DNA of 64,000 nt from an uncultured Gammaproteobacteria bacterium (lineage in GTDB: Bacteria > Pseudomonadota > Gammaproteobacteria > Arenicellales > Poriferihabitantaceae): NCBI GenBank assembly GCA_937992195.1, contig CALKKV010000017.1:20086-84085 (forward strand), given 5' to 3'. Below the pieces are notes generated by a model that did no database searches, was not told where the DNA came from, and saw only the letters and a list, made by a program, of their open reading frames with translations. Position numbers and translations under genes: made by a program. Positions 9,462-35,015 of the stretch are shown here, piece after piece (position 1 is the first letter of the stretch; every line of letters begins with the position of its first letter).

Positions 9462-10862
9462 TTAATGCCGTGCAGCGAGCAGTTTTGCCGCTTCAATAGC
9501 CGCCATTTTAACCTGCTCTGGGGCTGTTCCACCAATATGATTTCTCGCCTTGACAGAACCTTCTACCGTGAGCACATCATAAACATCAGATTCAATGCTT
9601 TCAGAGTGGTGTTGCAGCTGTGAGAGCGGGATCTGATCGAGAGATACCTGGTCTGCGATCGCCATGCCAACGACTTTTCCCACAACCTCGTGGGCATCGC
9701 GAAACGCTATTCCTTTTCTTACTAGATAGTCGGCAAGATCGGTGGCCGTGGAATAGCCGTCAGCTGCAGCCTTATACATGTTCTCTGTTTTAAACCTCAC
9801 TTGAGGAAACATCGCCGCCAGCACCTCAAGGCAGATTGTGCAGGTGTCCAATGTGTCAAACATGGGTTCTTTGTCTTCCTGATTATCCCGGTTGTAGGTC
9901 AGCGGTTGACCCTTCATCAGAGTCAGCAAGGCAACCAGATTACCACTCACCCGCCCGGCTTTACCGCGAATTAACTCCGCCACATCCGGGTTCTTTTTCT
10001 GCGGCATAATGCTGGAGCCAGTGCAGAAGCCATCGCCTAAATCCACAAAATCAAAGTTGCCTCCGGACCATAGAACAAGCTCTTCAGCGATCCGAGATAA
10101 ATGCACGCTAAGTAATGCTGCGTGGGCGTTAAACTCAATCACGAAGTCTCGGTCTGAGACCGCATCCAGGCTGTTATTTGACGGCAAATCAAAACCCAGC
10201 GCATCCGAAGTCATTTGCCGGTCAATAGGATAGCTGGTGCCCGCCAGTGCAGCCGAGCCGAGCGGGCATATATTGATGCGCTTACGACAATCTTGCAGCC
10301 GTTCATAATCCCTCTGCAGCATTTGATTCCACGCAAGAAGGTGGTGGCCGAGAGTTACAGGCTGTGCACTTTGCATATGGGTATATCCCGGAATAATATG
10401 CGCCGAGTGCGCTTTGGCGAGGTCGACCAGGGCCTGCTGCAGTCGAGTAAGTATCTCGCACAGATTATCCACGCCGCCCCTCAGGTAGAGGCGCATATCG
10501 GTTGCAACCTGGTCATTTCTTGAGCGGCCGGTATGCAGCTTTTTCCCAGCCTCGCCAATTCTTTCAGTCAGCGCCGCTTCGATGTTCATATGCACATCCT
10601 CGAGCTCGGGAGCCCATTTGAAAGCACCCTCCTCAATTTCAGCAAGAATCTGCTGGAATCCAGACTCGATATCTTGCAAATCCTTTTTGCTCAATACGCC
10701 AACCTTGGTCAACATTCGCGCATGGGCCAAAGAGCCCTGAATATCCTGCGAATACAGTCGCCAATCAAAATCTACTGAAGAGGAAAATGCCTCCATCAGG
10801 CTGTCAGTGGAACCGCTAAAACGGCCGCCCCACAGCTTTTTCTGAGTATCAGAATGTTTCAT
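9462..10862 (-). CDS. argH: Argininosuccinate lyase
   Basis: [29 protein letters not shown]. Confidence 0.98.
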
Positions 10863-10988
10863 AAAGTCTATTTTTAACGTTTGCTAAGGCGTATTTGGAA
10901 TTCGGTCAGTGAAGAACGACTGCTCAACTGAAAAAAACTACCATTTATCGGAAAGATTTGAAAAACAACAATGACTGTAGTCTACTGG

Positions 10989-11107
10989 AACAGCGGGTAG
11001 GTCGAACCACTCGCTAGTCGGGTCTTTACCCCCTTCAGCAGAACCCCCATTCTGTTCGACCCGATCAAATAATTCTACTCCCCTGCTTTTGCAGGGGAGT
11101 TTTTTTT
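10989..11107 (+). ncRNA. Candidate small RNA with three stem-loops and two C5 motifs; family not recognised, 5' end approximate
   Basis: SL1 AGCGGGT(10992-98)/ACTCGCT(11009-15). SL2 GTCGGGTC(11017-24)/GACCCGAT(11058-65) with bulge TTTACCCCCTTC and inner AGCAGAA/TTCTGTT capped by CCCCCA. SL3 is a terminator. Non-Watson-Crick stem pairs are G-U on the + strand. Confidence 0.65.
11077..11107 (+). terminator. Intrinsic terminator
   Basis: ACTCCCCTGC-TTTT-GCAGGGGAGT, perfect 10-bp stem, T run 11100-11107; no + strand CDS ends here. Confidence 0.9.
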
Positions 11108-11480
11108 GTCTGGTTGAAAAATCACGGGTGGCGTCATCTCGGGACTGCATTCAGCTGGATAATATTCGCTCAAACGGTTACATACCAATCTATATTTGCT
11201 GGTTTTTGGTTTTACCATCGCTTTTCTGGCGGATCAGCGACCCTGACGACCGTTCAAAGTGAGAAATTTCCTCAAAAATGCCGGATTATGGCGATATACT
11301 CGCCTACACTCTCCCTTACCCTTTGCTAATAGCTGTTCCAGCTGGAGACGCGGTTGAAATCCAATATGCCCAAGGTAAGAGAATATGGTAGTTTATGAGC
11401 TGAAGGAACAACAATAAGTCGGCCACATTCCTGTATACGTGGATCTTACGTTTTCAACTAATTAAAAACACCTCGGGGTT

Positions 11481-12518
11481 TTGGTCAACGATCACTTCCA
11501 ACTTAATTTTGCTAAAGGCGGGTTTCCTATAAGGTTTACCTGCACGGCTTTGCTCGGCCTGCTACTTTGCTGGGCAATGTATTTGAGCGCAAATTGGCAA
11601 ACACCCATTTTGATGGAATCGGTTATCGGCCATTTACTGATGATTACGGTGTTTGTTGTCGCTTCGCTTTTGCTTATCCATTTTTTCAACGACACAATCG
11701 GCCAGATGAGTCCGCTCTGGGGCATTTGTTTGGCCTGGCTACTAACTGTGCTTGTCGCTGTTGGGATCTACATTGTGATTTTCCTGCTTGCGGGGCGCTA
11801 CGGCACGGAATCAAGTATTCCTATCTTGCGTTACGTTCAGGTTCAGGCTCCACACAAGCTAATGATTTTCGCCTTATTGCTGGGATTTCCCTACTTTTGG
11901 ACGGAAAGAGAAACTTACACCGCCAAAGCGCTGGTCAAGTCTACAAACTCAGATCAGTTTACTAACCTCGGTTTCCGAATTCGCCCCCATTTTCTTTTCA
12001 ATACACTGAATAGCGTGGCGCACTTGATTAGCTTGCATCCGGCACGAGCAGAAAAAGCGCTATATAATCTCGCTGACGTGTTTCGAGTAGTAATGGCTGA
12101 CAAAAGAGATTTGGTGCCGTTAAAAGCCGAACTAGAGCTAGCCGACAAATACCTGTTTTTGGAGAAGACGCGACTCGGAGAAAGACTGCAGGTAGCCACC
12201 AAAGTAGATCCCCATGCGCTTGGAGTAATGGTTCCGGTATTATTACTGCAACCATTGTTAGAGAACGCGGTCTATCACGGAATTGAGACGCGATTTAAAG
12301 GCGGCAGAATTAATATGAGCGTGCAAGTTATCGACAAACACCTCATTATTCAGATAACAAACCCGTTGCCTGAAGGCAGCATTAAGCGAAGCAGCGGTAA
12401 CAAGGTAGCACAGGAAAACTTAAGAGAGAGGATTTACCGAACATTTGGAGCGCGCGGCACATTCGATGCATATGAGGCGGACGAAAGATATACCGTGACT
12501 CTTCGGTTTCCCCTTTGA
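11481..12518 (+). CDS. LytS-family sensor histidine kinase, AlgZ/FimS-like
   Basis: Four N-terminal hydrophobic segments, IRPHFLFNTLN H-box, LQPLLENAVYHG N-box, reduced G-box; argH-algZ-algR synteny. TTG start uncertain. Confidence 0.9.
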   Translation: MVNDHFQLNFAKGGFPIRFTCTALLGLLLCWAMYLSANWQTPILMESVIGHLLMITVFVVASLLLIHFFNDTIGQMSPLWGICLAWLLTVLVAVGIYIVIFLLAGRYGTESSIPILRYVQVQAPHKLMIFALLLGFPYFWTERETYTAKALVKSTNSDQFTNLGFRIRPHFLFNTLNSVAHLISLHPARAEKALYNLADVFRVVMADKRDLVPLKAELELADKYLFLEKTRLGERLQVATKVDPHALGVMVPVLLLQPLLENAVYHGIETRFKGGRINMSVQVIDKHLIIQITNPLPEGSIKRSSGNKVAQENLRERIYRTFGARGTFDAYEADERYTVTLRFPL

Positions 12519-12521
12519 AAA

Positions 12522-12631
12522 CATTCGATGGACTTATATGCTCTGTGAAGGGGGCGATAGTTCGAAAGCCGGGCGCAGCTTTATTAAAAGCTTGCAACTG
12601 TCGAGTTGTTATAGAGCGATCTGTATGAATG
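12522..12631 (+). promoter_or_regulatory. Long structured RNA element in the algZ-algR spacer (putative algR leader)
   Basis: Nested helices CATTC/GAATG, ATGGA/TCTGT, GCTCTGTGA(12540-48)/TTATAGAGC(12609-17), CGATAGTT(12555-62)/AACTGTCG(12596-603), GCAGCTTT/AAAGCTTGC; five G-U pairs, all on the + strand. Confidence 0.55.
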
Positions 12632-12687
12632 GAATTCAAAAACAGGCGTAAAGTTGATGCAGGACGTAAAAATATATTGATAAGAAA

Positions 12688-13425
12688 ATGAAGTATTTAA
12701 TAATTGACGACGAGTTTCTCGCAAGAGCGAGACTGAAAGAGCTGCTGCTTCGTATTGACCCGAATGCAGAAGTGTTTGAAGCCGAAAATGGTCAACAGGC
12801 GATAGACTTTTGTGAGAAGCACCGGCCGGATACAGCGTTAGTAGACATTCGAATGCCCGGTATTAGCGGTATTGAGCTGGTATACCACTTCTCGGCATTA
12901 GAGAATACGCCGGCAGTGATCTTTACAACCGCCTATAGTGAATACGCGCTGGAGGCATTTGATGCCAATGCTATTGACTATCTTTTGAAGCCAGTGCAAA
13001 TCGATCGTTTGAAGCGGGCTTTGCTAAAGGCAAACCCCATCAGTGAATCACAAACCCAATCGTTGCGTAAAAACTCTCGCAGCATGCATATTTCGATCAG
13101 TCAAAAGGGCAAAATAAAACTAGTCCCTATCCAAAATATTTGTTACCTGAAGGCTGAAAATAAATACGTTATGGTGAAAACTCCGAATGAAGAGTTTTTG
13201 ATGAATGAAACATTAAATAACCTTGAGACTGAGCTCGGCGAGAGTTTTCTTCGGGTTCATCGCAATGCCCTGATCTCTACTGAACATCTCGAAGGGCTGG
13301 AGAAAAATGAGGACGGGCAGTGGTGTGTCTTTTTTCGCGGCATCGACGACACAGTCGAAATAAGCCGCCGCCAGACACCAACTATACGTGCCTGGTTAAA
13401 GAGCCGCGGCCTGGATCAGTCATAA
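12688..13425 (+). CDS. algR: LytTR-family response regulator, AlgR-like
   Basis: REC domain (IDDE, LVDIRMPG, FTTAY, LLKP) plus LytTR domain (FLRVHRNALI, ISRR); follows the AlgZ-like kinase. Confidence 0.88.
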   Translation: MKYLIIDDEFLARARLKELLLRIDPNAEVFEAENGQQAIDFCEKHRPDTALVDIRMPGISGIELVYHFSALENTPAVIFTTAYSEYALEAFDANAIDYLLKPVQIDRLKRALLKANPISESQTQSLRKNSRSMHISISQKGKIKLVPIQNICYLKAENKYVMVKTPNEEFLMNETLNNLETELGESFLRVHRNALISTEHLEGLEKNEDGQWCVFFRGIDDTVEISRRQTPTIRAWLKSRGLDQS

Positions 13426-34292: not shown

Positions 34293-35015
34293 TTAGCCAT
34301 TTGCGACAGCCGCTGAGGAAGTCACATTTTCGTTCTTATCAGAGGCTGTTTTCATTAGTCGGTCGATATGGTCTAGCGTCTTCTCCAAACCGGAGTAATC
34401 CAACAGAACACGGTGAGCCACTCGGTCTTTTACCATCACAATTGACGGGAACCCCTGCACACCTAACTTTCGAACCATTACCATTTCTTCCTGGTGTAAT
34501 ACGCGAAGCGCCTGGCTCTGCATATCCGTAGTGAACTGATTTTTATCCAAGCCAATCTCTTCTGCAATTTCAACCAGTGTAATGATGCTGGAAGGGTTAC
34601 GCGCCTGTGTATAGTAGGCCTTTTGAATGGCTTCGATCATCGAACCTTGCACTTTGGCAGCTTCAGCAGCATTTGTTGATTGGCGACGAGCCGCAATAAC
34701 GGCTCTACAAGCGGGCCAGGTAGAGCGCTTGGGTTCGCACTGAGTCCAAAAATCGAAATTAAATTCAGTGCCTGGAATACGCTGTTTGATCTCTTTCCAG
34801 GTCTCTTGCAAATACTTTTGCATTGATTCCGGCATCGGCTCTTCCGAATCCGGTGCCAGCCCTCCGAGCAGCTCGATCACCTGAATTTTGGAGGCGTATT
34901 TATGCTGAATAGATTTCTTAAGCAGTTTCCACGCAGGCGAAAACCCCCAGCACCAGCTGCACATCGGATCGTGCGCATAATAAATTATCGGCTTGTCGCT
35001 TGCTTCTAATTCCAT
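34293..35015 (-). CDS. DsbA-family (thioredoxin-fold) cytoplasmic protein
   Basis: DPMCSWCWGF, STWPACRAV, GVQGFPS. Confidence 0.9.
   Translation of the reverse strand: MELEASDKPIIYYAHDPMCSWCWGFSPAWKLLKKSIQHKYASKIQVIELLGGLAPDSEEPMPESMQKYLQETWKEIKQRIPGTEFNFDFWTQCEPKRSTWPACRAVIAARRQSTNAAEAAKVQGSMIEAIQKAYYTQARNPSSIITLVEIAEEIGLDKNQFTTDMQSQALRVLHQEEMVMVRKLGVQGFPSIVMVKDRVAHRVLLDYSGLEKTLDHIDRLMKTASDKNENVTSSAAVANG

Follow-up and report, generated by a model that had tools for sequence, protein, structure and literature searches.

A predicted small RNA beside algZ-algR-like genes in marine gammaproteobacteria and a candidate pairing site within the operon

A predicted small RNA gene between argH and algZ

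The DNA analyzed here, called the window, is a stretch of 64,000 nucleotides (nt) from the genome of an uncultured gammaproteobacterium (C17:20086-84085; the assembly comprises 3.76 Mb in 95 contigs and is 86% complete). It carries a compact element with the hallmarks of a small RNA gene, which lies on the plus strand between a divergent gene for argininosuccinate lyase (argH, 9462..10862, minus strand; Pfam Lyase_1 and ASL_C2) and two genes that resemble algZ and algR. The algZ/fimS-like gene (11481..12518, plus strand) codes for a predicted sensor kinase of 345 amino acids (aa; Pfam His_kinase PF06580, E = 5.6e-20), and the algR-like gene (12688..13425, plus strand) codes for a predicted response regulator of 245 aa with the Pfam domains Response_reg and LytTR. 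Thus, the AlgZ(FimS)/AlgR-type architecture of a PF06580-type kinase followed by a REC and LytTR regulator is present. The two genes are separated by an unusually long intercistronic spacer of 169 nt (12519..12687, plus strand), whose sequence is not a repeat in this genome.

On the basis of its fold, terminator, and covariation, the RNA is predicted to be ~115 nt long and to extend over ~10993..11108, with a putative start near 10993. Its architecture, all of it on the plus strand, begins with a 5' hairpin (10992-11015) and continues with an outer stem (11017-24 paired with 11058-65), a 5' single-stranded seed (UUUACCCCCUUC, 11025-36) whose alignment columns are invariant, and an inner hairpin (11037-43 paired with 11050-56) that displays the apical loop CCCCCA (11044-49). 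The RNA ends with a terminator that has a stem of 10 base pairs (bp; 11077-11100) and a U-run (11101-08). Folding of positions 10985-11108 yields a free energy of -49 kcal/mol (z = -5.96), and none of 200 shuffled sequences was as stable.

An alignment of 17 homologous sequences evaluated with RNAalifold contains 22 consensus pairs, 11 of which exhibit compensatory changes. Across the same alignment there is an invariant core (UUUACCCCCUUCAGCAG...CCCCCAUUCUG), and the invariant columns (C39-C43, T44, T45, and C55-T65) represent a single-stranded seed embedded in a covarying structure. Two C5 motifs, one in the 5' seed and the other in the apical loop, are both single-stranded and invariant, and these motifs should seek G-rich sites. 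The RNA also possesses its own promoter and a Rho-independent terminator, both of which are conserved, and the -35 and -10 blocks can be recognized in all 17 sequences. The original prediction, which was made from the letters of the window, proposed that the locus itself encodes a small RNA whose C-rich seeds are unpaired, and at the level of sequence this proposal is borne out by the z-score of the fold, the terminator, the covariation, and the conserved promoter.

Homologs of the small RNA were found by BLAST in 15 of 61 related genomes and by a covariance model (R1) in 16 of the 69 genomes of the family. An unfiltered scan of loci from one genus, g12, revealed three further carriers and raised the latter count to 19 of 69. 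When R1 was applied to an order-wide sample, six of 151 genomes gave matches, three of which are among the 20 genomes of a second family (f6). Wherever a label was given, the related carriers are described as metagenome-assembled marine gammaproteobacteria. The gene order argH (minus), small RNA (plus), and algZ (plus) is kept in syntenic loci. Within the family of the window, argH adjoins the small RNA at 13 related loci, and it does so in family f6 and in genus g12 as well.

Additional copies of the RNA gene, here called siblings, reside at unlinked loci, with two copies each in the genomes G001 and G007 (L017 and L018 in G001 and G007, and L019 and L020 in G007 and G001, respectively). All four have an identical seed and the same promoter, promoter boxes, and terminator, and the genes downstream from them are convergent. 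One pair of siblings is divergent from a ferrochelatase (hemH) gene, and the other pair has promoter boxes that agree with the AlgR consensus considered below at nine of nine positions. Because the siblings stand alone and are followed by convergent genes, the small RNA must be a free-standing gene and not merely a leader.

None of the 4227 models of Rfam matched the 64-kb window at gathering thresholds. The best match below threshold was the anti-hemB RNA (RF02837, Burkholderia RNA 7), which scored 24.4 bits versus a gathering threshold of 49.5 bits (E = 0.006). The two RNAs are alike in having a C-rich loop that is followed by a terminator. Membership in the anti-hemB family was nevertheless rejected, because the score is under the threshold and stems from the terminator together with the C-run. 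A narrow search of the literature found no published small RNA at an argH-algZ/algR locus, and an hfq gene is present in the genome. We consider it very probable that positions 10993-11108 encode a trans-acting RNA that functions by base-pairing, probably of the Hfq type, and that represents a family absent from Rfam.

Several other aspects of the RNA gene and its relatives were observed. Four DNA runs contained no variation at the seed or at the spacer site described below. A metagenome run (X2) provided an 80-nt contig (11027-11107) in which two letters, at 11057 and 11069, are changed relative to the window and the terminator loop has a 2-nt gap. These changes fall where the RNA of the closest relative of the window, G003, also differs, so the X2 sample may contain a related species in addition. 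In the genome G018 (locus L013), the small RNA is located beside argH, and no algZ was found in this 98%-complete genome. Unrelated sequence replaces the usual terminator there, and an NlpC/P60 gene lies downstream in convergent orientation, so this may be a decaying copy. In genus g12 (L066-L072), a diverged copy of the RNA precedes an algZ-like kinase gene in six of nine genomes. Downstream of this kinase gene are rpsU and yqeY in place of algR, which means that the partner regulator must be encoded elsewhere.

Some details of the surrounding genes complete the description of the locus. The assembly encodes three LytTR proteins, one of which is the algR-like regulator. No AlgR-specific model of NCBIfam exceeded its cut-off with this regulator (the top model was BtsR, with 153.6 bits versus 246), and neither this comparison nor a search of PDB sequences established it as an AlgR ortholog. 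The argH neighborhood of algZ and algR is presumably as in Pseudomonas. In an alignment of relatives, the start codon of algZ is TTG or GTG at the equivalent position. Two open reading frames (ORFs) of 70 aa (10938-11150, minus strand) and 71 aa (11114-11329, plus strand) overlap or follow the RNA gene. These are mechanical calls that match no Pfam family and are probably not genes.

Promoter organization and AlgR-type boxes

The sequences upstream of the RNA hint at how its transcription might be controlled. A distal 9-mer (CTGCTCAAC, 10920..10928, plus strand), which forms part of a LytTR-type direct repeat, is situated 12 nt upstream of a proximal AlgR-type box (CCATTTATC, 10941..10949, plus strand). 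The proximal box in turn is 8 nt upstream of the -35 element TTGAAA (10958-63, plus strand), in which TTGA is invariant in the promoter alignment. The -10-like block (TAGTCTACT, 10978-86, plus strand) is nearly invariant, and this is true even when the unlinked siblings are included. All 17 aligned promoters have the same fixed layout, which consists of a 9-mer, 12 nt, a second 9-mer of the form CC-N5-TC, 8 nt, and TTGA. Within the genus the distal block is conserved as CWGYTCAAC, and the copies in family f6 also conform to the 9-12-9 layout.

The AlgR box consensus used for comparison is that of Pseudomonas aeruginosa (PMC4064291; PMC4787818). Proximal 9-mers agree with this consensus at five to nine of nine positions; the window scores six and two of the siblings score nine. 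The distal 9-mer of the window matches at five of nine positions. Paired repeats have also been described for other LytTR regulators. Promoters for ComE contain a pair of imperfect 9-bp direct repeats joined by a 12-mer linker (PMC4005675), and AgrA binds two direct repeats directly upstream of its promoters (PMC4227749).

There is also precedent for AlgR acting on a small RNA gene, since P. aeruginosa AlgR binds the promoter of the prrF2 small RNA (PMC5790918). The likeness to the present case, where binding is predicted, consists in a 9-bp AlgR box that precedes a small RNA promoter. Unlike the RNA examined here, prrF2 encodes an iron-sparing RNA from a different locus that is controlled mainly by Fur, and its single box lies 63-72 bp upstream (PMC5790918). 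The two RNAs have unrelated sequences.

A weight matrix for the promoter was built from the relatives, with the row for the window omitted, and ~7.5 million positions were scored. The small RNA promoter received 51.4 bits, whereas the runner-up in the genome received 24.2 bits. This runner-up (G000 contig C11, ~34,850-34,900, minus strand; L088:3350-3400) carries an AlgR box that fits the consensus at nine of nine positions and has the same 8-nt gap to the -35 element. It lies ~290 nt upstream of an operon for two CheY-like proteins, a CheW-like protein, and a Cache-domain receptor of the methyl-accepting chemotaxis protein (MCP) type. Judging from its Pfam domains, this operon looks pilG/H/I/J-like. 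In the orthologous promoter of G003, both boxes are retained with their spacing and with the -10 element, although the DNA around them cannot be aligned. The third-best match, at 20.5 bits (C9 ~65,122; L089), is beside a second LytTR gene (C9:64235-64504), and the repeats of other LytTR regulators may resemble AlgR-type boxes.

The distribution of the RNA parallels that of the regulator. Within the genus, an AlgR ortholog (E <= 1e-40) occurs in exactly the seven of 13 genomes that have the RNA and in none of the six that lack it. Because a LytTR repeat precedes every copy of the RNA and the next-best match is located upstream of the pilG-like operon, transcription of the small RNA is probably activated by the AlgR-like LytTR regulator encoded downstream, although we hold this view with appreciably less assurance than that of the RNA gene itself.

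A G-rich candidate target in the algZ-algR spacer

The original prediction reported a stretch of complementarity between the RNA and the algZ-algR spacer, and this stretch is indeed present. The sequence CCCCCTTCA (11029-37) is complementary to TGAAGGGGG (12546-54), and beyond a bulged G (11038) the letters CAGA (11039-42) are complementary to TCTG (12542-45), for a total of 13 bp with one bulge. The pairing portion of the RNA consequently comprises CCCCCUUCA, the bulged G, and CAGA (11029..11042, plus strand), and the candidate target (12542..12554, plus strand) starts 24 nt past the algZ stop codon, with 134 nt between its end and the algR start codon. On both strands of the 3.76-Mb assembly, TGAAGGGGG occurs eight times versus ~23 times expected from base composition. 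One of these eight is the antisense of the RNA gene itself, and another is the spacer site. When the match is lengthened to 13 nt and a bulge is allowed, only these two occurrences remain. More generally, G5 runs are under-represented in this genome, with 2,148 found and ~5,140 expected.

The strength of the predicted interaction was evaluated relative to all 10,601 GGGG sites by using a 33-nt seed together with opening energies. This query replaced a 44-nt version that included stems of the RNA, which ranked the spacer site 775th through unrealistic multi-loop duplexes. Opening would cost 5.6 kcal/mol in the RNA, because CAGA sits in the inner hairpin, and 3.8 kcal/mol at the site, which leaves a total of -13.8 kcal/mol. 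Accessibility rescoring was carried out in two sets, the top 600 sites by energy and then the remaining 10,001. Seven sites in the first set were better than the spacer site, including two that are the antisense of the RNA gene, and in the second set two were better and two were tied. With this correction, the spacer site ranks 10th of 10,601, or 8th of 10,599 when self matches are removed, but it ranks only 114th by hybridization energy alone.

Of the seven sites that outperform the spacer and are not self matches, three are inside long ORFs, another is on the strand opposite a long ORF, a fifth is in a 5' untranslated region (UTR), and two are unclassified; most of the highest-ranking predictions do not coincide with gene starts. 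The 5' UTR candidate precedes an ORF of 577 aa on contig C76 and was rejected as a conserved target, since the ORF belongs to no Pfam or NCBIfam family and has no ortholog in five relatives. A ranking of translation-start regions from crude ORF calls was dropped because false starts within ORFs dominated the list. The predicted target sites of the window's genome did not reveal a conserved regulon, and the 5' UTR of the pilG-like operon offers a poor site (rank 4,657).

Certain structural aspects of the original prediction did not hold. The spacer had been portrayed as a structured algR leader, whereas the fold of a 182-nt spacer segment has a z-score of -1.20, 21 of 200 shuffled sequences are as stable, and the minimum free energy (MFE) structure has an ensemble frequency of 0.0006. 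The G5 run had been placed in an internal loop, whereas in both the MFE and centroid structures four of its five G residues pair with CUCU in a small hairpin. A loop-to-loop start followed by helix unzipping is likewise unsupported by the spacer fold. A second match had been noted at GGGGTT just before algZ. These letters do exist at 11475-80, but they are absent at the equivalent place in 12 other aligned sequences, including that of the closest relative.

Conservation of the candidate target was examined in 11 species that have adjacent algZ and algR genes and a readable spacer. Spacer lengths are 169 nt in the window, 157 nt in G003, 58 nt in G009, 50-51 nt in three species, and 7-24 nt in five species. 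The window, G003, and G009 carry a run of four to six G residues at the same offset past the algZ stop codon, but the other eight species have none. Likewise, when the whole operon was scanned, the best site fell within the spacer for these three species (at +31, +27, and +24 nt past the algZ stop, respectively) and for none of the other seven species scanned. The notion that the RNA pairs with the algR leader is supported to the extent that the spacer G5 is the best predicted site in the whole algZ-algR transcript, but it does not apply to the locus in general. The three species can be joined as one branch of a tree of AlgZ plus AlgR (support 69/62; 70% of bootstrap trees).

The spacers of G003 and the window align poorly save for three islands, one of which is CTGTGA[A/G]GGGGG and overlies the candidate target. 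The A-to-G change in the G003 island still permits a U-G pair with the RNA. The other two islands (GAGCGATCT, 12614-12622, and ATGCAGGACGTA, 12647-12658) could possibly form an internal algR promoter. In G009, runs of GGGG and GGGGGG fit the apical and 5' C motifs in antiparallel order, and the resulting duplex has a predicted energy of -32.4 kcal/mol. The fraction of 500 shuffled sequences that match the spacer pairing is 0.010 for G009, 0.040 for the window, and 0.146 for G003. The island of the window and G003 can form a hairpin of 4-5 bp by itself. When the spacers were read by eye, no counterpart of this hairpin was seen in G009, which makes a structure of local significance alone less likely than pairing with the RNA. 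The spacers of G007 and G001 keep GCTCTGT and not G5. A scan of metagenomes added two relatives, one with a 50-nt spacer that has no G-run and another whose contig ends before the spacer.

The spacer site is thus lineage-specific, possibly confined to one subclade, and feedback through this site is not the core function of the RNA. Because the seed is invariant even where the site is absent, and because siblings exist in genomes that have no such site, the core targets of the RNA must lie elsewhere.

A proposed AlgZ/AlgR circuit and its alternatives

The explanation we propose has three layers, which are a genuine small RNA, its activation by AlgR, and feedback through the spacer. An AlgR-like regulator would bind the two 9-bp direct repeats, centered near -48 and -69, and activate the RNA, which would make the RNA an output of the AlgZ/AlgR system. 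The same system would also drive the pilG/H/I/J-like pilus chemosensory operon through the same box. Where the spacer is expanded, in the window, G003, and G009, the C5 motif of the 5' seed would pair with the G-run ~25-30 nt past the algZ stop codon, thereby closing a feedback loop and changing the expression of algR relative to algZ. The most likely route would be altered stability or processing of the bicistronic messenger RNA (mRNA), given the 134 nt between the site and the algR start codon.

As a whole, this three-layer explanation is plausible but falls slightly short of what we would call probable. Its last layer, in which the RNA would pair with the lengthened spacer in the lineage of the window, G003, and G009 and change the output of algR relative to algZ, is a plausible but tentative proposal in its own right. 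Expression of the RNA, binding by AlgR, dependence on Hfq, and how strongly and in which direction algR might be affected are inferred from sequence. The original prediction had cast the RNA as a local tuner of AlgR relative to its kinase. Feedback of this sort is possible in some species, but, given the AlgR/LytTR-type promoter boxes, an independent tuner is less likely than an output of AlgR.

A number of observations weigh against activation by AlgR. The proximal box of the window is among the weakest in the collection, at six of nine positions of the consensus, and applying a P. aeruginosa consensus to a distant lineage is an assumption. The genome encodes two other LytTR proteins, and since the third-best matrix match is beside the gene for one of them, another LytTR regulator could bind the boxes. 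The RNA is kept in G018 without algZ, G027 and G016 have only weak kinase matches, and the kinase gene of g12 adjoins rpsU and yqeY and not algR. Moreover, the co-occurrence of the RNA with AlgR was recorded among kin, and these are not independent observations. It is accordingly conceivable that another LytTR regulator, or no regulator at all, binds the boxes, such that the RNA is outside the AlgR regulon. We regard this as rather unlikely, because the promoters of two siblings and the pilG-like operon have boxes with nine of nine matches to the consensus, the RNA gene is linked to algZ-algR across two families, and the RNA and AlgR coincide in the genus without exception (seven of seven genomes with the RNA versus none of six without it). 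The position of the element invites another reading, in which it serves as a cis-acting 5' leader or attenuator of algZ-algR, with transcription from the AlgR-box promoter either stopping at the terminator or reading into algZ. The element is upstream of algZ and on the same strand in every syntenic locus, and a consensus scan of the plus strand at 11108-11480 found no sigma-70-like promoter. However, four siblings with the same promoter, seed, and terminator occupy unlinked loci with convergent downstream genes, G018 retains the element without algZ, and the terminator, with its 10-bp stem and U-run, is strong. A cis-acting leader is for these reasons improbable as the full explanation, although cis- and trans-acting roles are compatible and need not exclude each other.

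Feedback through the spacer faces its own difficulties. In eight of the 11 species, the spacer (7-51 nt) has no G-run, although the seed of the RNA is identical. No compensatory changes between the RNA and the site were found in relatives, because the seed never varies, and the pairing in G003 is not above that of composition-matched shuffles (0.146). The distance of 134 nt to the algR start codon argues against a simple block of translation. In addition, the match was selected post hoc. Approximately 10 sites of this quality per 7.5 Mb imply that ~0.17 would be expected somewhere in the 64-kb window, whereas the same arithmetic gives ~0.0002 for this particular spacer, and the truth for a post hoc choice is between these two values. 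It is quite possible that a genuine small RNA acts on other targets, that the spacer complementarity is fortuitous or non-functional, and that the G-rich island is a local hairpin, an element for processing or stability, or a protein site. Besides the points just listed, this reading is favored by the rank of 114 among 10,601 sites by hybrid energy, by the 4-5-bp hairpin that the island forms in the window and G003, and by the two other spacer islands that are equally conserved and have no explanation. Arguing for the feedback reading instead, the spacer site is among the top 10 of the 10,601 sites once accessibility is taken into account, G-runs at the same offset recur in three species even though G5 runs are rare in the genome, and the G009 version fits both C motifs and cannot form the local hairpin.

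The proposed circuit can be compared to known systems. OmrA and OmrB of enterobacteria are sibling small RNAs that are activated by OmpR and pair with the mRNA of their own OmpR-EnvZ system to create feedback. The RNA family described here would similarly comprise regulator-activated siblings with feedback on their own two-component system. There is no relation in sequence or structure, however, and the site in our case is in an intercistronic spacer, not at the translation start of the regulator, and in only three of 11 species. RNAs of the RsaE/RoxS type in Firmicutes use exposed C-runs in loops to pair with G-rich sites, and they share with the present RNA the use of C-rich loop seeds for G-rich sites. 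They belong to another phylum and differ in architecture, no Rfam model matched the RNA of the window at threshold, and the top sites predicted here are mostly away from gene starts. Another useful comparison is SgrS, which pairs at the manX-manY intergenic region and brings about discoordinate control of the operon. In both cases, intercistronic pairing shifts the relative output of two cistrons (a prediction for algZ and algR), but the site studied here is 134 nt from the downstream start codon and its mechanism is proposed only.

The most ambitious version of our preferred reading is that the RNA is both a dedicated output and a governor of AlgZ/AlgR. In this version, phospho-AlgR would induce the RNA via the tandem LytTR boxes, spacer pairing would uncouple synthesis of the regulator from that of the kinase in the subclade with expanded spacers, and the siblings, among them the copy beside hemH, would relay AlgR activity to a regulon defined by G-rich sites. 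We consider this full version unlikely, but if true it would constitute an undescribed small RNA arm of the AlgR pathway.

The AlgZ/AlgR (FimS/AlgR) system of Pseudomonas, which regulates pili, alginate, and virulence traits, has been studied extensively, and to our knowledge its post-transcriptional arm is poorly defined. A conserved small RNA that is attached to the algZ-algR locus in two families, with an AlgR-type box and sibling copies, offers a testable route by which AlgR signals may reach translation or mRNA stability. The spacer may additionally provide a natural example of a feedback site that is found only where the intercistronic region has expanded. The RNA itself, with its alignment and structure, supplies what is very probably a new family for the databases.

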